Below the pieces are notes generated by a model. That model had not been told where the DNA came from, did not search any database, and saw nothing but the letters and a program-made list of their open reading frames with translations. From contig CAVXDX010000008.1 of the NCBI GenBank assembly GCA_963760615.1, positions 97,459 to 161,458 of the forward strand: a DNA stretch of 64,000 nt. Direction: 5' to 3'. The stretch is from an uncultured Candidatus Micrarchaeota archaeon. GTDB lineage: Archaea > Micrarchaeota > Micrarchaeia > Burarchaeales > Fermentimicrarchaeaceae. A program made the translations under genes and the position numbers. Positions 5,990 to 54,193 of the stretch are shown here, piece after piece. How positions within the stretch are numbered: position 1 is the first letter of the stretch; each line of letters begins with the position of its first letter.

Positions 5990-6140
5990 ACATTTATTTT
6001 TAATTCTAGTTCTAACGTGCAGGGAGATTAGAAAGAACCGCAAGGTTCCTCTCCTGAGCCAATATTAACCTTTCCAGTTCCGGCACATCTCGCACAAGAA
6101 ACAGCACTTTCATCTCGGGCATAAGCAATACCGGTGAAAA

Positions 6141-6299
6141 CAGTGATTTCACCTCGGCAGTAAATCACTGGTAAATCGCCATAAAACTCGGTAAATCCCT
6201 CTTTCTCGCAAGCGTATAAATTACGTCGGGTAAATGCGGTAAATCCGCTCGCGTTGCGGAAAGGTCTGCCGTCGGAGTGATGGCAGTAGCGGATTTACT
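6141..6299. repeat. GTAAATC iteron-like repeat array in a 340-bp intergenic region
   Basis: GTAAATC(C/G) at about 6162, 6171, 6191, 6230, 6239 plus inverted AGCGGATTTAC at 6288; GGTGAAA-N7-TTTCACC inverted repeat at 6133-6153. Confidence 0.5.
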
Positions 6300-6329
6300 T
6301 TTCAGGAAGCTCCGGGTATTCCAGCAGGA

Positions 6330-7193
6330 CTACCTTCGGGATATTCCCAAGCTTGTCGATTGCTCTTTCTTCAGCATCTTCGAGTTGAAATGGTCGTAAA
6401 TCCTTATCACAGTGTCTGCTGCCGAAGCGACCACCTGTTCATACTCCTCCCTGCTTATCTCGCACTTTTCATCTACTCTGTGCGGAAGGTGGAACACGAA
6501 CCCTTCTAGGGCTACCTCGTAATGCTCATACAGCTCCTTGGCTATTGTCTTGTCGTCAGGATAGTCAAATCTTCGCAGAGATGCCCTAAGCTTGTCAATC
6601 CTTCTCAGAGGCTCGGCTCCAGGTGAACTCTGCCAAAGAGTTACATTAATGCCGGGTATTTTCAAATACTCCTCAAAGACTTCCTTTGAGTCTGCTTCGA
6701 CGTAAACAATTGGGTTGCTTTTCAGCTCGGTAGGCTTCGAGTTGCTGTAAACTAAATAAGGAGCATGTGTTGCTGGGCTGTAGTGTATGTCTACAATGAC
6801 GCTTGCACGCTCATCCCTTGCAGTTCCTAGCATTTCATTGTAAACTAGCAGATTATCGAAATTCTCCTTTTTGAAGAGCCTGTCCTGTTTCCTCATGCCG
6901 TAATCCTTTCCTGTTTTCATCCAGTGCAGGTCTATGACATCAGATGCATGCGTAAACGATTTCAGTTCGCAGACCTTTATGTCCCTCTCACCCTTGATTT
7001 TTTGAATTCGTTTCGCAACATCTTCCGTGAACTGCCTCTCAGGAGTGTGGGCGCCCCATGTCACGAGCATCGTTATGTATCTCCTTGCTTCCCCGACGTC
7101 CTGCGCGGCTTTCTCGAATTCTTTCTTATTCAGAATAGTCTTTATAGGTACGCTCCCCTCACCAGTCTCTGCGGTTTTGTGAATTCCATCCAT
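6330..7193 (-). CDS. hypothetical protein (cassette-promoter family member A)
   Basis: 287-aa ORF; start preceded by the conserved cassette CATGCCTGAATTATGCC...TATTTAAA. Confidence 0.5.
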   Translation of the reverse strand: MDGIHKTAETGEGSVPIKTILNKKEFEKAAQDVGEARRYITMLVTWGAHTPERQFTEDVAKRIQKIKGERDIKVCELKSFTHASDVIDLHWMKTGKDYGMRKQDRLFKKENFDNLLVYNEMLGTARDERASVIVDIHYSPATHAPYLVYSNSKPTELKSNPIVYVEADSKEVFEEYLKIPGINVTLWQSSPGAEPLRRIDKLRASLRRFDYPDDKTIAKELYEHYEVALEGFVFHLPHRVDEKCEISREEYEQVVASAADTVIRIYDHFNSKMLKKEQSTSLGISRR

Positions 7194-7268
7194 GCCTGAA
7201 TTATGCCTTTTCTTCTATTTAAACCCTAGAGAAGTCTATAAAGATTGTTATAAGGTAACTCCGGGAAC

Positions 7269-8279
7269 CTATCGCTCGACCAGCTCAACCCTCAAAAGTT
7301 TATTTTTTATGAACGAGTCCAAACGATCGGAAAGCTCACCTCCCAATCCGCTCGAGCTCATCCCAGACATTTTCAGCTCCTCTTGAAGCTTCCAATCTTC
7401 TAAATGCCCCCGCCCTCCATTTGCCCGGTCCAGCTCCACAATCAGCTTTTCTATCTCTCCCAGCCCTCCCTCCCTCTCGAATACTATTTCGTGCCATTTA
7501 GCTTCAAAAATTCTGGATGCTTCCTCAGGAGTTATAAAGCCCCTCTGGTCTATCCTATGCTCGATTTCAATAAACGCTTCCCCTATGATGGAAGGAAGCT
7601 TGCGTATTTCAGCATCAAATTCCGCCCTCTTCCCGCGTTCATACTTTATTCTTGTCATTTTCAGCGACTCCTTCTTCGGAGGTGATTCCAGCAAATGTAT
7701 GTCGGTCAGCTGCCCCAGGCTTATCCCCTGGTCCTCCAGATTCTTTACATTTGTGGAGATGGTATCCAGTCGGGTCTTGTTGACGAACTTTACTATATCC
7801 GCCATGGGGATCCGCGTCTCTTCCTTCAGCATGTTTATTATATCCCTTTCAACCTCATCAAGAAAACTGCTGAATTCCGCAGGCGCTTTTGTCAGGAGGC
7901 CCTGCCGGGCGTACTCCGCTGGGTTCCTCCCTCGCGTTTCCAGAGCCATTATGTTAGCCTCAAGGTTAATCGGGGTTGCCCCTAGGAGCGACAGCGAGGG
8001 AATGGAGCATATCTTGTGCCTATCAAAAATCTGCATATTCTTCTCAATCTTATCCATTGAAGCGTGCTTTAGAAGGTTGCTTATGCCCTCAACGGAAGCA
8101 CTCTCCACTCTGCTTTTTATTATCCGGATAGTCTCCCTGTCTCCCTTCGGGCGGCTGTCTGCTAAGGCCTTTGCATCACCCCAGCGCATGTAAAGGTCTC
8201 TCATCAGCCATTTTTCAAACTCCCCTCTGCTCATAAGCCTGGTATCCTTCCCTTCAGTTTTGACCTGCTCGGCGCACAT
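7269..8279 (-). CDS. hypothetical protein (cassette-promoter family member B)
   Basis: 336-aa ORF; cassette at 8280-8312; 14-bp palindrome at 8350-8363. Confidence 0.5.
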   Translation of the reverse strand: MCAEQVKTEGKDTRLMSRGEFEKWLMRDLYMRWGDAKALADSRPKGDRETIRIIKSRVESASVEGISNLLKHASMDKIEKNMQIFDRHKICSIPSLSLLGATPINLEANIMALETRGRNPAEYARQGLLTKAPAEFSSFLDEVERDIINMLKEETRIPMADIVKFVNKTRLDTISTNVKNLEDQGISLGQLTDIHLLESPPKKESLKMTRIKYERGKRAEFDAEIRKLPSIIGEAFIEIEHRIDQRGFITPEEASRIFEAKWHEIVFEREGGLGEIEKLIVELDRANGGRGHLEDWKLQEELKMSGMSSSGLGGELSDRLDSFIKNKLLRVELVER

Positions 8280-8349
8280 GGTTAGATTATGGCTTTTTCG
8301 ATATTTAAGCTTGTTCGATTAACACCGGCAAATCGTAACTTTCGGTTAT

Positions 8350-8363
8350 GTAACCATGGTTAC
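8350..8363. promoter_or_regulatory. perfect 14-bp palindrome GTAACCATGGTTAC upstream of ORF 7269..8279
   Basis: Exact palindrome; identical copy at 11628-11641. Confidence 0.6.
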
Positions 8364-8373
8364 ATCTAACCTC

Positions 8374-9426
8374 TCAACCCATCTTATCAGGAAGCTTCGG
8401 TGCCTTCCTTATCAGCTCGTCAATGTCGGTTATGCCTGTCTTAAACTTCTCCAGGCTTACCCCATACATCTTCACTTCCTTCTGGCCCACCACAACAAGA
8501 TTAGCCTCCTCTATTCCTAGAAACAAGCCCCTCGCTTTGCATCTCTTTTCAAAATCATCCAATCTCTCTTTACCAACTATTGCCTGCAATGTGTAATAAT
8601 CCCTGAAACCCTCGCTGTATCTCCTTGCCTTGCCTGCTTCGTCCCTCCATACGTCAAAATTCAAATATTTATCCTGAGGGTGATCATAGTCCCCCATCCC
8701 ATGTTTATGTTTATAAAATGCAGGGAGAGGAGTTGCTATTTTATCCATAAAACTTATAGCATAAAACGCCCTGACAAATGCATCCTTGCTGCTGAGCAAT
8801 TCAGTCTCGGCGAAAGTGGCTTTGCCTTCGCTGTACCTCTGCATAGCCCTCCGCAGCCTTTTTGCATCCTCACCCCCAGTACGGAATTTATGTAAATCCT
8901 CCCAAAAAAGAGCCAGCCTACGGGCACTTTCATCACGTATATGGTCCATCTCGTGCAATATTGCTCCAATCGACGAAATGGCGGATTCCTGCGCGTAATA
9001 CAGCACTCGGGTGCCGTCCTTCTCACGGCTTCCATGCCAATCTCCGTCATAAGATTTGAGTATTCTCAAACCTTGAGTTTCCATCCCATGATTTTTCTTT
9101 ACATACTCAAGTACCTGCATAAAGTGATCCCTTGACTGGATTGAGAGGGGCAAATTGTTCTCTTCAGCAAAGTGGTTATCAAGATACCGAACTAGCGGGC
9201 TGTTGCCTAACCGGAACATTCTGCCTGCCTTTATAGTCTCGCTGTATCTGTACGGATCCTTTATTTCCTTCAGCCTCTCTCTCGCCCAGTCTCCCATCCA
9301 CGCCTTTACTTCCTTTTGTTTCTCCAATGTGCCCAGCGCCTCATCAGCTATCTTCCAGCATTTTTCATAGAGTCCCTTGGCTTCTTCGCTTAAAACCAGC
9401 TCGCTTGACTTTGTAGCTGTTACCAT
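8374..9426 (-). CDS. HExxH zincin-like putative metallopeptidase (family member C)
   Basis: 350 aa; HEMDH followed 12 residues later by W, as in ORFs 10639..11589 and 45159..46139; cassette promoter. Confidence 0.5.
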   Translation of the reverse strand: MVTATKSSELVLSEEAKGLYEKCWKIADEALGTLEKQKEVKAWMGDWARERLKEIKDPYRYSETIKAGRMFRLGNSPLVRYLDNHFAEENNLPLSIQSRDHFMQVLEYVKKNHGMETQGLRILKSYDGDWHGSREKDGTRVLYYAQESAISSIGAILHEMDHIRDESARRLALFWEDLHKFRTGGEDAKRLRRAMQRYSEGKATFAETELLSSKDAFVRAFYAISFMDKIATPLPAFYKHKHGMGDYDHPQDKYLNFDVWRDEAGKARRYSEGFRDYYTLQAIVGKERLDDFEKRCKARGLFLGIEEANLVVVGQKEVKMYGVSLEKFKTGITDIDELIRKAPKLPDKMG

Positions 9427-9566
9427 GCCTAAATTATGCCTCTTTTGATATATTAAGATTACTTTGGAAGTTGGAATCTGAACTCAAAAGTAACTGCCCG
9501 CCCTTGGCATCCTGAACTGAAATGTTAATGCCCAGCTGTAGCTTTGAACTGAAATAGTCAAGAACC

Positions 9567-9701
9567 TTAATATACTCCTGAATAACAGACCACCTTTTTT
9601 ATCTTTCTAGTTCCAACCGTTCCGTCAGGAAGAATAAATGCCTTATATCTAGCCCTTCGCTTCTTTTCCCGCTTATAAATGCAACCTCTTGGAGCTTTCA
9701 T
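9567..9701 (-). CDS. small basic protein (44 aa)
   Basis: Not in the ORF track (under 60 aa); AGGTGGT Shine-Dalgarno 5 nt before ATG; MKAPRGCIYKREKKRRARYKAF...; co-directional downstream of the CxxCxxCC gene. Confidence 0.3.
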   Translation of the reverse strand: MKAPRGCIYKREKKRRARYKAFILPDGTVGTRKIKKVVCYSGVY

Positions 9702-9764
9702 TTATACCACCTCTATTTTTTAACTTCTTTTTTTGTTAATTCATCTTTTTGTTTCGTCATGATT

Positions 9765-10196
9765 TCACTCCCACAATTTTTTAATTACCTCATCAACAGT
9801 TATCGTTTCAAAAATTGGGCAGTCCTTTTTTTCAAAGTCTATTATCTTCTGTATCTTTTCCCTGTTCCATTTTTCTACTCCTCTGAATAAGTTATCTGGG
9901 CCGATAGCACAGAAATCAGGTCTTTCCTTATCCCAAACCGAGCAGTAATATTTTCCGTCTTTCATATATAGTTTAGCACACTCTTTTTTGAATGTTATCT
10001 GCTTCATGTCGAGTCCATCCCCAAATGTAAAAGGCGTGTCCTCTGTGATCTCTGTGATAATTGTATTATCGAGCATCCATCTAAACCTAAGTGCGGAGTC
10101 TAAAGTATCGTATAGAGTATATTCCTTGCAACACTTGGCACATCTTTGGCATATCTCCGAGTTTGCCAATTTGCTTTTGTTCCCGATTATTGTCAT
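9765..10196 (-). CDS. CxxCxxCC putative zinc/iron-chelating domain protein (YkgJ-like)
   Basis: 143 aa; CQRCAKCC motif plus additional Cys; start overlaps the TBP stop by 4 nt (ATGA). Confidence 0.55.
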   Translation of the reverse strand: MTIIGNKSKLANSEICQRCAKCCKEYTLYDTLDSALRFRWMLDNTIITEITEDTPFTFGDGLDMKQITFKKECAKLYMKDGKYYCSVWDKERPDFCAIGPDNLFRGVEKWNREKIQKIIDFEKKDCPIFETITVDEVIKKLWE

Positions 10197-10507
10197 CTGC
10201 TCACCTTCTTGGGGACTGGCAGAGGTTTTGTATGGGGAGCCAGTAGCTTTATCGCTCGCTCTAAGGCATACTTCACTTCTCTCTCATTCTTGCAGCCTGT
10301 GCATATTACCTTGCCGTTCTTGAAGAGCAGAAGAGATGCCTTTGGATCTTTGAACTTGAGTATTGCACCTGGGAACTGCTCTGGCTCATACTCCACATTC
10401 CTGATTTTGCTGGCAATAGTGTAAAGGTCAAGCTCCACTCCCAGATTGGCTGAAGCTACTATGTTCTCTATCTTGAACGATGGATCAATTGTAAGTTTCT
10501 TTGTCAA
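10193..10507 (-). CDS. single-repeat TATA-box-binding protein (one TBP domain only)
   Basis: 104 aa, TTG start; KIENIVASANLGVELDL...VEYEPEQFPGAI...DPKASLLLFKNGKVICTGCK is unmistakable TBP repeat sequence; no second repeat upstream or downstream. Confidence 0.7.
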   Translation of the reverse strand: MTKKLTIDPSFKIENIVASANLGVELDLYTIASKIRNVEYEPEQFPGAILKFKDPKASLLLFKNGKVICTGCKNEREVKYALERAIKLLAPHTKPLPVPKKVSR

Positions 10508-10638
10508 TGAAACACCTTCTCTGCCCCTTCCAGCCCATTTCTACTTAAAACCACCTGTTAGATGCCTCCCACCATACTCTCACTCATCAAATAGTTCTGT
10601 TCTGTAGTATATTAAGATTGCTTTGGCTTGAGAATAAG

Positions 10639-11589
10639 CTAAACCCTCCCTTCCTTCAGATCTCTCAGATACTCATCCGGATGATCTATGTGCCTCATGG
10701 TAAGAGGAGGATGTTTAATCGTGTATTTGATTGGGTTTTCCCCGGTTTTTTTCTCTATATACCCCAAGAACGCCATGCCCTTGGAATTTAGAGGTTGCTC
10801 CTCGTCCTCCTTAAGCAGTGTGGACTGTCTCATAGCCTTGTAGGAGTAACCAAATTTGCTTATAACCCGGTACCCGGCGTAGTATGCAATGCCCTCGTCG
10901 AAAGCTTGCCGGGCGTCAATCCCGTCTCTGACTATCTGCCATCTCGCCTCCATAGCTTCCTCATCCCCTGCTAGTTCAGAGTGGATTTTTACCTGCTCAC
11001 GTATGGAGTCTACAGACCAGTTCGCAACCTCAGGAATATTCTCCTTGATTGTTTGGTGCAGCTGCTCGTGGACAAAAGTGTTAAGGACAAGAAACCTCTC
11101 GATTCTCTTCCCTTCCTCGCTGTTTGGGCTGACTAGTTGCACTGCGCACTGCAGTCTAAACAGCTCTTCAATGTTGTCCCGCACAATATATGCGGTATTT
11201 TGCTCAGAGCTGAAAAAACCGGAAGTAGCTCTAAAAATGCTGGGCATATCGAAATCAACACCTTCCATTATCTCCCGTCTGAGCTCTTCGAGGAGAGTCT
11301 TATCGGACATGAACTTTTTGGATGTCGAGTAGAACTCTTCCTGCGTCATTTTCGTCGCTTCATCCCTGCTAATGAATTTTATGCTTATCTCGCCTTTTTT
11401 AAAACTCGTACTTACTTTCATCCCTGTTATGTCTTCGATACGTTTTGCAACTTGCATTATTTCGTATTTCGAAGGCACGTATAGCTCGGTTGGTGGAGAA
11501 GCAGATTCGCTATTAGTTTTATCTGCACCATGAAGTCTGATTATATGGTCCTTTATGTTCGTATCAGCTGATGGCTTAACAGTCCACAT
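10639..11589 (-). CDS. HExxH zincin-like putative metallopeptidase (family member D)
   Basis: 316 aa; HEQLH-x12-W and FDEGIAYYAGY (EGxAxY-like); cassette promoter at 11590-11622; palindrome at 11628-11641. Confidence 0.5.
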   Translation of the reverse strand: MWTVKPSADTNIKDHIIRLHGADKTNSESASPPTELYVPSKYEIMQVAKRIEDITGMKVSTSFKKGEISIKFISRDEATKMTQEEFYSTSKKFMSDKTLLEELRREIMEGVDFDMPSIFRATSGFFSSEQNTAYIVRDNIEELFRLQCAVQLVSPNSEEGKRIERFLVLNTFVHEQLHQTIKENIPEVANWSVDSIREQVKIHSELAGDEEAMEARWQIVRDGIDARQAFDEGIAYYAGYRVISKFGYSYKAMRQSTLLKEDEEQPLNSKGMAFLGYIEKKTGENPIKYTIKHPPLTMRHIDHPDEYLRDLKEGRV

Positions 11590-11622
11590 GCTGAGATTAT
11601 GCCTCTTTCAATATTTAAGCTT
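11590..11622 (-). promoter_or_regulatory. conserved promoter cassette (TATA + GGCATAATCTnRRC) directly preceding ATG
   Basis: Coding strand CTTAAATATTGAAAGAGGCATAATCTCAGC-ATG; near-identical at 7194-7232, 8280-8312, 9427-9462, 46140-46172; weaker at 13986-14020 and 30207-30243. Confidence 0.6.
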
Positions 11623-11627
11623 GCTTT

Positions 11628-11641
11628 GTAACCATGGTTAC
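11628..11641. promoter_or_regulatory. perfect 14-bp palindrome GTAACCATGGTTAC abutting the TATA box of ORF 10639..11589
   Basis: Exact palindrome 8 nt upstream of TATA (ATATTTAAG at 11611-11619). Confidence 0.6.
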
Positions 11642-11721
11642 ATTCTCCGCCAAATCTCATCTTCGCTTTGGTATTAGCCTGTTTCTCGGCAGATTTAAAT
11701 ATCAGAAATGGCGTAATTTAA

Positions 11722-12186
11722 GTGCTGAGATTTATGGTAACAACTGTGATGGATGAACCAAAAATGCGGGTAGAAATGCAAAGGAAATACTTTAAAGAAA
11801 AAGATTACAAAGTGGTAGAAGTTCCTAGAAGCAGGCTGGGTGAACTGTCCCACATATGGAGCCTGCTGCCAAGGATCGGGTATGACGAAGGCAAACCTCA
11901 GCCCAGTATGATTCCTGTCGGTTTTGTAAAAAAAGAAGACGAAAAATGGCATCTTTTGGGTGTAGTAAAGCATCAGGATGTATTGCATCATGTACCAGGA
12001 TCATCGGATTTGTTTGTAGAACCGCTAACAGGGAAATTAAGCATAACTCCAAAACCCCAAGACGATATAACACGAAATATGGTTGAGGTTCTTGTTGCAA
12101 GGCTTCCAGAGCCATTAAAAACCAAGCTGTATGAAGCAGCCCTAAAGCATGCGGATTTAGGCAGGGATATGTTCGTAAAGGATTAG
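11722..12186 (+). CDS. hypothetical protein
   Basis: 154-aa ORF. Confidence 0.4.
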   Translation: MLRFMVTTVMDEPKMRVEMQRKYFKEKDYKVVEVPRSRLGELSHIWSLLPRIGYDEGKPQPSMIPVGFVKKEDEKWHLLGVVKHQDVLHHVPGSSDLFVEPLTGKLSITPKPQDDITRNMVEVLVARLPEPLKTKLYEAALKHADLGRDMFVKD

Positions 12187-12198
12187 GACACCGCCAGA

Positions 12199-12756
12199 TT
12201 ACAGCTCTCCCTTCATCTTCTCAAGCAGAAAATCAAATCTAGTAAAGCCCGCTTCCTCGTTGATATGCCCCGCATTCTTCAGGATAATCAGTTCTGCTTT
12301 GAGGTTTTTTGCAAGATTTCTGCCCTGCTCAAGTGGTACATAGGGGTCGTTATCTGAGTTCATCACATAGAACTTTCCGCAGTTTCTCCTTATTTTATTC
12401 CAGTCGAACTGCTTTCCCACGAATGTTCCAATAAATTCATCAAACTCCGGGTTATCCAGAGGAGTTGTGAAACCTGCGACAAAAAAAGCCGCCTTAACAG
12501 GTTTATCCAGTCTTTCAATCACGCTAAGAAGGAATGCAACTCCCAGGCTGTGACCGACAACAATGGAGTTTTCCAGCTGAGGCTTATACTTTTCAAATGC
12601 ATCCAGCCAGTTCTGCAGCTTCGGGTCTTCGGGGTTGGGAAGCTGCGGGACAAGCACTCTGCAGCCCAGCTTCTTCAGCTCATTTTTAAGCCAAGGAAGC
12701 CAGTTCTCAGAGGGGCTTCCGCCAATGCCGTGTATAATGAAGACGTTAGTCATCAC
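12199..12756 (-). CDS. alpha/beta serine hydrolase (RBBP9/YdeN-like)
   Basis: 185 aa; IIHGIGGSP, GHSLG nucleophile elbow, late AGH catalytic His. Confidence 0.6.
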   Translation of the reverse strand: MMTNVFIIHGIGGSPSENWLPWLKNELKKLGCRVLVPQLPNPEDPKLQNWLDAFEKYKPQLENSIVVGHSLGVAFLLSVIERLDKPVKAAFFVAGFTTPLDNPEFDEFIGTFVGKQFDWNKIRRNCGKFYVMNSDNDPYVPLEQGRNLAKNLKAELIILKNAGHINEEAGFTRFDFLLEKMKGEL

Positions 12757-13769
12757 AAAACCTTGAAATCCACCACAACCTGCACAATTCCGGGAGCGAA
12801 AGGCCTCACTATCCTCTTCCCGATTATTTCCGCCTTTCTCCCGCTGAGCTTTGCTTCGCTTATGACAAGCCTCTCAGCATCCTCAAACGGGTTTTTCTCA
12901 GGGGCAAACTGGTATATGTGTATTACGCAGTTCTTCCTTGCCGCAAGGAAAGCTTCTGAAAGGAATTTCTCAGCCCCTTTTGGGAGAGGCATTAGAATCC
13001 TGTCCGCGGAATTCACAAATTTTTTCGGAATGATATCCTTAACATCTCCCAGTATGGGAGTTATCATCTCCTGCATCCTGTTCAGCCTTATGTTTTCTTG
13101 CATGTACTTGAATGCAACAGGATTCAGCTCTATTGCTTCAATTTTCACCCTCGGCTGCATTTTGGTAATCACTATGGGAAAGGGCCCCACTCCAGCAAAC
13201 ATTGCAAGGATTTTCTCTCCAGGCTTCACCTGTTCTGCAATTCTTTCCCTCTCGAAAGACAGCCTTGGGGTGAAGTAAACTTTCGCAACATCAAGCCGGA
13301 ACCTGCAGCCATTCTCCTTGTACTCCGCAACCGTCCTTTTCTCGCCTGCGAGGAACTTCAGCTTCCTTATCCTGTACACACCTTCCATGGGCCCGAGCTT
13401 CTTGTAGACTGATTTGACATTCCTGTGCACGCTGAGCAAAGAATCTGCAATGAGCTTCTCCTTTTTCTCAAGCTCCTTGGGAATTTCAACTATTGCAATA
13501 TCTCCGATAACATCGAAAGACTTCACTACCGAGTTGAGCTCTTCCGCTGTTAATTTACCTTTCAAGCTCTCCTCAAGCGAGAGGACTCGTGGGGCTCTTT
13601 TCTCAAGCTTCTTTTCAATGAGCTTGAAGCTCTTGAATCCGCCCTTCAGAGGGAAGTAAATTCCTGTTGGCTCAGCTTTGGGGGAATAACTGTTGTCAAG
13701 CAAGTTTAGCGAGATGAGCTCTTTTCTGACTCTCTCCGCGTCTTTTCTCTTAACGAGTATGCATTTCAT
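12753..13769 (-). CDS. trm5: tRNA (guanine37-N1)-methyltransferase Trm5 (Met-10+ family)
   Basis: 338 aa; DMFAGVGPF SAM-binding motif and overall Trm5/TYW2 architecture. Confidence 0.7.
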   Translation of the reverse strand: MKCILVKRKDAERVRKELISLNLLDNSYSPKAEPTGIYFPLKGGFKSFKLIEKKLEKRAPRVLSLEESLKGKLTAEELNSVVKSFDVIGDIAIVEIPKELEKKEKLIADSLLSVHRNVKSVYKKLGPMEGVYRIRKLKFLAGEKRTVAEYKENGCRFRLDVAKVYFTPRLSFERERIAEQVKPGEKILAMFAGVGPFPIVITKMQPRVKIEAIELNPVAFKYMQENIRLNRMQEMITPILGDVKDIIPKKFVNSADRILMPLPKGAEKFLSEAFLAARKNCVIHIYQFAPEKNPFEDAERLVISEAKLSGRKAEIIGKRIVRPFAPGIVQVVVDFKVL

Positions 13770-13826: not shown

Positions 13827-13985
13827 CTACTCAAGTTTTCCCCTAAGTTTCTTTGCGACTTTCTCAGCTGGTCCTGAGAGTGATATTTCCGACGCCTCTC
13901 TGTTTACACCAGGGGCATGTGTTACGAATTGTGGCTCCTCAACTATCTTCTGATGCCTTTTTAGTGTTCCTGACACGAGTATCAC
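13827..13985 (-). CDS. small hypothetical protein (52 aa, GTG start) carrying the cassette promoter
   Basis: GAATTATGCC...TACTATTTAAAAG cassette at 13986-14020 directly upstream; ORF under 60 aa so absent from the track. Confidence 0.3.
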   Translation of the reverse strand: MILVSGTLKRHQKIVEEPQFVTHAPGVNREASEISLSGPAEKVAKKLRGKLE

Positions 13986-14071
13986 CAGTTTGAATTATGC
14001 CGTTTATACTATTTAAAAGCACTGGATACCACACCGAAGAAAGCTTTAATATTCACAGGTAAAATTATGTT

Positions 14072-27329: not shown

Positions 27330-27345
27330 TGCAACCACGAAAGAG

Positions 27346-27435
27346 CGGGCCCGGCGGGATTTGAACCCGCGACTCCCTGGTTTCCTCATGCGAGTTTAAA
27401 AGCCAGGTACTCTGGCCAAGCTGAGTTACGGGCCC
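27346..27435 (-). tRNA. tRNA-Lys (anticodon TTT) with 15-nt canonical intron
   Basis: Acceptor GGGCCCG/CGGGCCC, anticodon stem CCTGG/CCAGG, loop CTTTTA|A interrupted after position 37 by AACTCGCATGAGGAA, T-arm GCGGG-TTCAAAT-CCCGC. Confidence 0.75.
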
Positions 27436-45158: not shown

Positions 45159-46139
45159 CTAAAATTTGAGATCTAACTGCATCGTTATACCCGCTAGTCT
45201 CTGCATTATATCCTTATCAGGAAGCATGAGGTATTTTTTTAGGATTTCATCCCTCTGTTCTGGTGAGACCTTGTCATACAAAGAAGGCAGTTGCTTAATC
45301 AATTTTACCTGCTCCTCCTCTAGTGCTGGAACCTTAAAATCAGGGTTCAGTCTTCCATATTCCCAGAGCAGCAGCTTAAAGGCGTCAGCTCTGTACAGTG
45401 TATACTCCTGCTTCTCGTACTTAGTTTTTTTACTTATATGTTCTATATTCCGTATAGATTCCTCCCTGCCTGAGGCATTCGGATCGTATAAAAAGTCTCC
45501 GAATAATGGTAGGAGTTCCCAGTCCATAGCTTCGCCAATTCTATCCCTGAATCTATGAATCAGTTCATGGCGCAAGGAAGCACGGAAGGCACGCGAAACT
45601 TCCTGATAGTTCCCAGACTCAAAACTTAGGGCAAGGCTGACAAAGTCGCCGCCGCCTCCATAGTCAAGCGGAATGGATATTATCGGTAAGGCTTCTCTTT
45701 CACTCTCATATTCAAGCCCAAAGGCTGGAGGTTGACGCCGATCGCCAATGCTACGTATTCTTATTAGGAAAACCTCCTCGTTATAACCGGCAATTTTTGA
45801 CAGCTCATCTACTGCTACATTTAGCTGATAAACTACTGCTTTTAAAAGTTTAATATCAAGAGGCTTCGAATATTCCACCCTAAAATATCTTCCGTTTATT
45901 TCAAAATCAAGATTGCGGTTCAAAATCTCGTAGGTCAGTTCATCTTTTGTGGATTCAACTCTAGAAGTCGGAGGCACATCTTTGAACTTTTCCTTTGCTT
46001 CGTTTAGGGAAAGCTGCTTGACCTTGCCTGCGATTTCTTCCAAAAGGAGCCTGGCTATTGCCTGCTGAGGCGATTCCTTGGCTAACGGAAATTTAATATC
46101 TTGTTGCTCTTTCCTCTCCGCTACCTTCTCTCCATTCAT
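45159..46139 (-). CDS. HExxH zincin-like putative metallopeptidase (family member E)
   Basis: 326 aa; HELIH-x11-W; cassette promoter CATGCTTAGATTATGCC...TTATTTAAATA at 46140-46172. Confidence 0.5.
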   Translation of the reverse strand: MNGEKVAERKEQQDIKFPLAKESPQQAIARLLLEEIAGKVKQLSLNEAKEKFKDVPPTSRVESTKDELTYEILNRNLDFEINGRYFRVEYSKPLDIKLLKAVVYQLNVAVDELSKIAGYNEEVFLIRIRSIGDRRQPPAFGLEYESEREALPIISIPLDYGGGGDFVSLALSFESGNYQEVSRAFRASLRHELIHRFRDRIGEAMDWELLPLFGDFLYDPNASGREESIRNIEHISKKTKYEKQEYTLYRADAFKLLLWEYGRLNPDFKVPALEEEQVKLIKQLPSLYDKVSPEQRDEILKKYLMLPDKDIMQRLAGITMQLDLKF

Positions 46140-46187
46140 GCTTAGATTATGCCTTTTGCTTTATTTAAATAGTGAAGTTTACCGGTA

Positions 46188-53827: not shown

Positions 53828-54193
53828 GTGTTGTTTGTGGAAAGAGGCATTACCAAGGAGGAAATGGCATACATAAAGAGTCTTGCATCGGTTTTTTCTC
53901 AGAAATGGACATTTAATATTGTTTTTGCTCTTGCCAATGGTAATGAGGATACGGGGTTCAATGAGCTTATGAAGAATCTCGGGGGGATAAGCGCCGCAGT
54001 TCTGTCTCATAGGCTAAAAATCCTTCAGAAGTGGGGGTATGTGGAGCGTGAGGTAAGGATTGGCCCTCCTACAAGAACAAGGTATAAACTTAGCGAGAAG
54101 GGAAGAGGCTTGATAAAGGTTGCTGATTTTGTCCTCCAACACAGAGGCAAAACAACATATTCAACAGAGACGTTGAGCGGCGCACGTTTGTAG
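53828..54193 (+). CDS. HxlR-family winged-helix transcriptional regulator
   Basis: 121 aa; W..I...L..G...FNEL......IS...LS.RLK.L...G.V.R pattern. Confidence 0.6.
   Translation: MLFVERGITKEEMAYIKSLASVFSQKWTFNIVFALANGNEDTGFNELMKNLGGISAAVLSHRLKILQKWGYVEREVRIGPPTRTRYKLSEKGRGLIKVADFVLQHRGKTTYSTETLSGARL

Follow-up and report, generated by a model that had tools for sequence, protein, structure and literature searches.

The window analyzed here, the whole 64-kb stretch of Candidatus Micrarchaeota DNA presented above, contains two exact copies of the palindrome GTAACCATGGTTAC, at positions 8350-8363 and 11628-11641, against 0.04-0.10 copies expected. The initial annotation had described them as 14-bp palindromes, and their symmetry extends beyond that length: read from the sequence, site 1 is a perfect 18-nt palindrome (ATGTAACCATGGTTACAT, 8348..8365) and site 2 (TTGTAACCATGGTTACAT, 11626..11643) contains a perfect 16-nt palindrome at 11627-11642, neither being assigned to a strand. 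Site 2 agrees with site 1 at 17 of 18 positions, the block common to both copies is 17 nt long (TGTAACCATGGTTACAT), and the two sites are the longest perfect palindromes of the 64 kb. This dyad symmetry fits a two-fold symmetric binder. Both copies were recovered in independently assembled Logan contigs (L001 and L002, run ERR10755944), which excludes an assembly artefact. In the whole window, no further copies of the 14-mer with up to two mismatches (0.10 expected) or of the 18-mer with up to three mismatches were found, and neither degenerate copies (19 sites with up to three arm mismatches versus 27 in shuffled sequences) nor the half-site GGTTAC (18 occurrences versus 12.6 expected) exceed chance.

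Both sites are intergenic and located upstream of the B recognition element (BRE) and TATA box of minus-strand open reading frames (ORFs), namely ORF 7269 (7269..8279) and ORF 10639 (10639..11589), whose promoters had been predicted and can be recognized by their TATA boxes (ATATTTAA in plus-strand letters) at 8301-8308 and 11611-11618, respectively. Site 2 abuts the BRE and lies 8 nt from the TATA box, exactly as had been noted, and 37 nt from the ATG of ORF 10639, whereas site 1 is separated by 41 nt from the TATA box and by 69 nt from the ATG of ORF 7269 and is found only 8 nt past the stop codon of ORF 8374 (8374..9426, minus strand). The proposal that both copies occupy the same relative promoter location is thus only loosely correct. 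The region around site 2 is divergent, with the TATA box (11694-11701) of the plus-strand ORF 11722 (11722..12186) located 51 nt downstream of the site. The core promoters and near-leaderless starts of ORF 7269 (8277..8315, minus strand, AAGC-TTAAATAT-N8-GCCATAAT-N7-ATG) and ORF 10639 (11587..11625, minus strand, AAGC-TTAAATAT-N8-GGCATAAT-N7-ATG) and the divergent core promoter of ORF 11722 (11694..11724, plus strand, TTTAAATA-N8-GGCGTAAT-N7-GTG) follow a stereotyped design, in which a TTTAAATA-like box is followed by N8, (G)GCATAAT, N7 and ATG. The design is also present at the window ORFs 6330, 8374, 45159 and, with a GTG start, 11722, some of them without the palindrome (positions in the window: 7200-7223, 8277-8315, 9418-9460, 11587-11625, 11694-11724, 13979-14017 and 46131-46173), and in relatives (L036 9975-10003, L037 4697-4732 and L047 820-852), where it is kept in front of proteins that are only ~48% identical. 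Its occurrence at other window genes and in relatives argues that it is the ordinary near-leaderless promoter of this lineage and no special cassette; it would imply near-leaderless mRNAs with a conserved initiator-region motif. The adjoining 41-nt core promoters of the two loci are ~80% identical (33/41, counted by eye) and the 17-nt block is 100% identical. A paralogy comparison among the adjacent proteins revealed no similarity, and since the encoded proteins are mutually dissimilar, the pair of sites is not due to a whole-gene duplication. The same promoter design is found near a small ORF of 52 aa with a GTG start (13827-13985, minus strand) between TRM5 and an EamA transporter gene; it sits at the distance predicted by the design from a TATA/GGCATAAT promoter (13994-14017) and is probably a real small gene.

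The presumed targets of the two sites are ORF 7269, coding for a helical-repeat protein of 336 aa that resembles mTERF proteins, and ORF 10639, coding for a protein of 316 aa with an HEQLH motif and without a known family. ORF 11722, which is divergent from site 2 and encodes a protein of 154 aa without an assigned function, is a possible third target. While a word-indexed search returned no homologs of ORF 7269, an exhaustive search returned 14, all remote and in related archaea; for ORF 10639 only three homologs, with 48-52% identity, were found. The palindrome is absent upstream of all three ORF 10639 homologs and from the promoters of the remote ORF 7269 homologs (for instance L046 and L047), so that the conservation at orthologous promoters expected of an operator was not found for the orthologs of the two window genes. 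Because homologs of both genes occur without the palindrome, its tie to ORF 7269 and ORF 10639 is specific to this lineage. Likewise, no perfect-arm sites were found in 52 kb of loci from relatives of the window.

A scan of metagenome contigs for the 16-mer TGTAACCATGGTTACA yielded at least 120 loci. The conserved motif, seen also at the fam2 loci described below, has the consensus ATGTAAC-N4-GTTACAT. Among the matches listed, to which the following counts also refer, the 16-mer is present in more than 50 contigs of intermediate GC content, and all of those that could be placed belong to Micrarchaeota. The full 18-mer ATGTAACCATGGTTACAT is found at 20 of the 55 sites on contigs with a GC content of 0.40-0.52, compared with roughly five expected. 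On contigs with a GC content of 0.40-0.56, 16 of the 59 non-redundant sites fall within open frames of 150 codons or more, and the other 43 lie outside such long frames. Typically they are placed in AT-rich DNA, 8-25 nt upstream of TATA-like boxes and often midway between divergent genes, that is, in non-coding DNA with a set spacing to BRE/TATA and start site, as is usual for operators. Many copies unrelated to promoters, which the initial annotation had named as the result that would overturn its proposal, were not found, and the loci have no sequence in common beyond 18 nt. Several of the contigs also encode homologs of the window proteins ScpA/ScpB and TBP. The genes beside the sites are mixed and resemble, by translation, purF, purL, purP, the proteasome alpha subunit, a Hef-like helicase, NAD(P)HX dehydratase and ORFans, and in three loci a divergent pair resembling hisS and a kinase-deaminase fusion flanks the site. 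Other DPANN and archaeal loci, 390 kb in total, contain no perfect-arm sites. When the motif was looked for in the literature, the matches inspected were primers with an NcoI site and none of the titles pointed to it; a search for Micrarchaeota promoter motifs found no paper.

Two sequences in the window are related in appearance to the conserved motif. Immediately beside site 1 lies a degenerate second dyad, GTAAC-TTTCG-GTTAT (8335..8349, no strand assigned), with a 5-nt spacer that does not match the N4 spacing of the motif and with a single mismatch between its arms; it could serve as a weak auxiliary site or be meaningless. The sequence ATGGTAACA, found at 9418-9426 (minus strand) and 11734-11742 (plus strand), resembles the palindrome center plus one arm; the first copy corresponds to the initial codons (Met-Val-Thr) of ORF 8374 and the second to an in-frame ATG within ORF 11722. 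The pattern ATGGTWACA occurs six times in the window versus 0.46 expected, but it is mismatched to the conserved half-site ATGTAAC, and its resemblance is probably a coincidence.

The gene most commonly found beside the palindrome encodes a Micrarchaeota-specific protein of 76-89 aa, which we name fam2 (consensus MLLYxYDLKIKGxKxYNTLKRRFYYxLKKS...KTKSVL...EVYKAR). Among the matches listed, it is present at five loci with its ATG 3-18 nt from the site. A protein search returned 43 fam2 homologs, none of which (0/43) has a Pfam domain, and all of those named by source are labelled Micrarchaeota, Micrarchaeia or Candidatus Gugararchaeum. Five further fam2 loci were chosen by protein alone, to avoid a bias from picking by motif, and the motif is located upstream of fam2 in all five. 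In Ca. Gugararchaeum (L170) the site ATGTAACTATAGTTACAT lies 13 nt from the fam2 ATG, and in one Micrarchaeota metagenome-assembled genome (MAG; L171) the site ATGTAACCATGGACACAT, with two mismatches, lies 14 nt from it. In a second Micrarchaeota MAG (L172), ATGTAACTATAGTTACAT is found at 166 nt and a degenerate copy at 14 nt. The locus from Logan run ERR10755944 (L174) carries the perfect 18-mer ATGTAACCATGGTTACAT, identical to site 1, 1 nt from the ATG, and in a Joint Genome Institute metagenome (L175) the site TTGTAACCATAGTTACAT abuts the ATG (0 nt). The motif is thus conserved across species at fam2, and in the 73 kb of these five loci perfect-arm sites occur solely in front of fam2, with 0-1 site per locus of 7-20 kb. 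In front of fam2, the palindrome directly follows a TATA-like box and therefore covers the presumed transcription start, and the gap between site and ATG is 0-18 nt across the loci (in L172 via the degenerate copy). At these loci outside the window, an inverted repeat is thus found directly before the start codon of the putative regulator's own gene.

A six-frame hidden Markov model search of the 64 kb found no fam2 gene in the window. The closest relative of the window is a Candidatus Micrarchaeota MAG, isolate Sv368 (locus tag H0N98). Its contig L003 carries a TRM5 with 82% identity to that of the window (gene at 12753-13769) and correlates with the window in tetranucleotide composition at r = 0.97, which identifies the source of the window as a DPANN micrarchaeon; this contig stops 822 nt after TRM5 and does not cover the palindrome region. 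The same MAG encodes a fam2 protein (NYZ76608.1, P0065), and the lineage of the window therefore has a fam2 gene. P0065 is 92.5% identical (74/80 residues, counted by eye) to the fam2 protein P0027 of L174. L174 and the Logan contigs of the window itself share their sequencing run (ERR10755944), but in tetranucleotide composition L174 correlates with the window at only 0.76, compared with 0.87-0.96 within the window, and judging from this composition it may belong to a co-occurring relative.

By sequence, fam2 shows no homology to any Pfam or PDB family. Its AlphaFold 2 model (mean predicted local distance difference test score 92.7) has the order beta-alpha-beta-beta-alpha-beta, and Foldseek matches of the model are mostly Cas2 dimers, with probabilities of up to 0.99, so that fam2 is predicted to have a Cas2-like ferredoxin fold. 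The residues K20, R21, R22, F23, Y24 and Y25 of helix 1 are invariant and form a basic helix, LKRRFYY.

The same 16-mer is found in bacteria, on high-GC and some mid-GC contigs, where it lies 6-9 nt before genes coding for ChrB_N domain proteins (PF20229). Among the matches listed, nine loci show this arrangement, and three more have ChrB_N and ChrB_C as split genes; bacterial loci combining the 16-mer with ChrB_N are L054, L060, L072, L088, L097, L107, L108, L120, L130 and L168. The N-terminal part of these ChrB_N proteins matches the Cas2-like PaaX_M domain, and the 16-mer is probably, on this positional evidence, the operator used by this ChrB-like subfamily; the literature searched yielded no account of it in this role. 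Sequence homology between fam2 and ChrB_N is undetectable, with an hhalign probability of 0.1%, and no ChrB_N gene is present in the window. As homology is undetectable, fam2 and ChrB_N are best described as parallel in fold class, in the arrangement of gene and operator and in operator sequence, and not as demonstrably of common ancestry.

The two palindromes are real, non-random and intergenic, and the motif to which they belong is conserved and tightly associated with fam2. We hypothesize that they are operators of a Micrarchaeota-wide two-fold symmetric regulator that recognizes ATGTAAC-N4-GTTACAT, a reading of the sequence comparisons to which we assign a probability of roughly 0.7 and which agrees with the suggestion of the initial annotation that the sites bind a dimeric regulator, a suggestion supported by the occurrence of the motif in Micrarchaeota promoters and fam2 upstream regions. 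That a protein binds them, which protein this is and in which direction it regulates are matters that we infer from layout and conservation. The leading candidate for the binder is fam2, at odds a little below even; otherwise the binder would be a conventional factor. Under this proposal, a dimer of the regulator would bind just upstream of BRE/TATA of ORF 10639 and further upstream of ORF 7269, with site 2 being common to ORF 10639 and the divergent ORF 11722, and the bound dimer would act on the recruitment of TBP/TFB at these promoters. Activation of the targets seems the more likely effect by analogy, and occlusion of the BRE would be possible at site 2. In contrast, fam2 would repress its own gene, in which the palindrome is placed between TATA box and start codon; autorepression is suggested because the site covers the start region of the regulator's own gene but lies upstream of BRE/TATA at the targets, a layout that resembles that of an autoregulated archaeal transcription factor. 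More tentatively, and as one possibility that we favor less than a role of fam2 as such, fam2 might be a minimal (~80 aa) regulator without a helix-turn-helix (HTH), using a Cas2-like fold and binding the 18-bp dyad as a dimer through its invariant basic helix, and an ancient relative or a convergent counterpart of the N-terminal DNA-binding module of ChrB, which in several bacterial lineages is preceded by the very 16-mer found here.

Alternatively, the sites could be operators bound by a conventional winged-helix factor encoded elsewhere, such as the HxlR protein of the window (53864-54193) or another protein, while fam2 is just the most conserved member of the regulon, for instance a small ligand-binding protein of the ACT/PII/RAM-like type. 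We consider this unlikely, although it deserves serious weight. The initial annotation had named HxlR as a candidate binder, but its gene lies 42 kb away from the sites, none of the 120 loci listed has an HxlR homolog close to the palindrome, and relatives that have HxlR near the ORF 10639 ortholog (L036 and L037) lack the palindrome. In all lineages the site lies strictly 0-18 nt ahead of the fam2 ATG, a position that usually indicates autoregulation, to which the parallel with the bacterial ChrB_N genes likewise points. The second candidate put forward, a half-TBP (10193-10507, minus strand), fares no better, as its fold is one that binds TATA boxes and no positional or comparative link to the GC-containing dyad was found. 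This ORF encodes 104 aa from a TTG start with a single TBP repeat (Pfam TBP, E 4e-30), and NCBIfam TBP models match it with either repeat. Its stop codon overlaps the ATG of the next ORF (9765-10196, CxxCxxCC domain) in ATGA, and owing to this overlap it seems to be a real stand-alone gene and no truncation. Within 10340-10587 the Logan contigs of this sample are interrupted, suggesting that the segment contains a repeat or varies between strains.

A further reading is a purely local circuit, in which the ORF 7269 product binds the palindrome before its own gene and before ORF 10639. Such a circuit is suggested by site 1, which lies in the upstream region of ORF 7269 itself, by the resemblance of this protein in fold and profile to DNA-binding mTERF proteins, and by a sub-threshold HTH_24 match (E 3.5e-4) of its residues 140-186 together with weak LrpA, ChrS and MsvR matches. 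However, the motif is phylum-wide and present in contigs without a nearby ORF 7269 homolog, whereas the ORF 7269 homologs of L046 and L047 have no site. In addition, mTERF proteins bind asymmetric sites as monomers, unlike what a perfect dyad would suggest, and this circuit is very improbable.

It is scarcely credible that the palindromes are a mobile or enzyme-target repeat (a repetitive extragenic palindrome, REP, or miniature inverted-repeat transposable element, MITE; a recombination site; or a site cut by a Cas2-like nuclease) or an RNA hairpin of a terminator or leader. Copies are near-perfect everywhere, site 1 follows a stop codon by 8 nt, and fam2 resembles Cas2, some members of which are nucleases. 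Against this, loci share nothing beyond 18 nt, the density is low (two in 64 kb and 0-1 per 7-20 kb fam2 locus fetched by protein), and divergent promoters are favored over 3' ends; with two copies, no common flanks and a promoter bias, the window sites do not behave as REP/MITE-like palindromes. Predicted hairpins are no more stable than those of shuffled sequences (z -0.2 to -0.8), a T-tract is missing, a terminator scan gave no terminator at the sites and no Rfam match was obtained, so that an intrinsic terminator or structured RNA was rejected. A viral element was also rejected, the 16-mer giving only seven scattered, unrelated single matches in IMG/VR. In two related viral contigs (L039 at 2077 and L040 at 2330) the 16-mer is embedded in a longer non-coding dyad, TTAATGTAACCATGGTTACATTTAA, which may be an unrelated phage operator. 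Finally, that the sites have no function and are remnants of a duplicated promoter segment, or chance, is very unlikely indeed: the adjoining core promoters are 80-87% identical and the window has many repeated 14-mers of other kinds, but the same core promoter design is found at other genes without the palindrome, the palindrome is perfectly kept while its flanks are not, and an identical motif occurs in promoters of distantly related Micrarchaeota.

The two sites lie within a stretch of lower GC content (~6000-12200; 0.43-0.44 compared with ~0.48), which holds ORFans and proteins without a family (ORFs 6330, 7269, 8374, 10639 and 11722) and is flanked by ScpA/ScpB on one side and a serine hydrolase and TRM5 on the other. 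It may be a variable genomic island; no match to phage families (PHROG) was found among its proteins. HExxH motifs are present in both ORF 8374 (HEMDH) and ORF 10639 (HEQLH), whose products have no detectable mutual similarity. Two observations concern possible RNA genes. Upstream of the ORF 7269 homolog P0006, positions 330-650 of L046 form a GC-rich, structured-looking region of ~320 nt without an ORF, which may code for a signal recognition particle or RNase P-type RNA. Elsewhere in the window, ARAGORN reports a tRNA-like gene of 91 nt (27345-27435, minus strand) with a two-base anticodon that the program left undetermined, which may be an intron-containing or atypical archaeal tRNA.

DPANN archaea have small genomes and few recognizable transcription factors and are mostly uncultured, and to our knowledge almost nothing is known about their gene regulation. 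As a transcription factor operator the palindrome would belong to a known class; what is unusual is the candidate regulator and the phylum-wide conservation within DPANN. If fam2 is indeed a minimal regulator with a Cas2-like fold, it would represent a class of archaeal regulators not described before, with a regulon conserved in the genome-reduced phylum Micrarchaeota, to which the window ORFans beside the half-TBP would have been recruited in this lineage only. Since the 18-bp operator is tied to one small protein, the regulon could be charted from sequence alone. Should the Cas2-like protein be the binder, the range of DNA-binding folds known for archaeal regulators would be widened and a link established to ChrB, a bacterial chromate sensor employed in biosensors whose DNA-binding part is poorly understood. 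Should an ordinary winged-helix factor bind, the palindrome would be a normal operator that was previously undescribed.

Among known systems, ChrB of Ochrobactrum tritici is an experimentally established autoregulator whose target is an inverted repeat located from -37 to -4 relative to its own ATG; it requires the N-terminal residues Arg18 and Arg23 for repression, which the mutants R18A and R23A lose (PMC3817168). As at the putatively autoregulated fam2 gene, the inverted repeat is found within ~40 nt of the ATG, and the Cas2-like part, N-terminal in ChrB, may in both contain a DNA-contacting basic helix, marked by Arg18 and Arg23 in ChrB, by R19 and R24, which are invariant in the corresponding helix of the ChrB_N proteins seen here, and by the invariant KRRFYY in fam2. 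On the other hand, fam2 is only ~80 aa long and is without the rest of ChrB, the operator sequence of O. tritici differs, and no chromate genes are present near the window sites. A second comparison can be made with Lrp-like factors such as Ss-LrpB. Although half-site and spacing differ from those described here and no Lrp-type gene is associated with the present sites, these factors also use perfect or near-perfect dyads of 15-18 bp in their own control region and in a few other promoters, and the possible tandem auxiliary site beside site 1 would have its counterpart there. SurR and TrmBL1 of Thermococcales, which regulate in a position-dependent way, and upstream activators such as Ptr2 and TFB-RF1 are winged-helix or Lrp-type proteins with motifs such as GTT-N3-AAC and TATCAC-N5-GTGATA, whereas the motif described here is ATGTAAC-N4-GTTACAT, its host a DPANN micrarchaeon and the candidate binder a protein without an HTH. 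Common to all is a palindromic site upstream of BRE/TATA at the targets, and with SurR and TrmBL1 the present system also shares, at the gene of the putative regulator (here fam2), a site over or just downstream of the TATA box and start. In SurR and TrmBL1 the position of the site decides between activation and repression, and by analogy the two-mode layout of the Micrarchaeota sites would correspond to autorepression of fam2 combined with activation or modulation of its targets.
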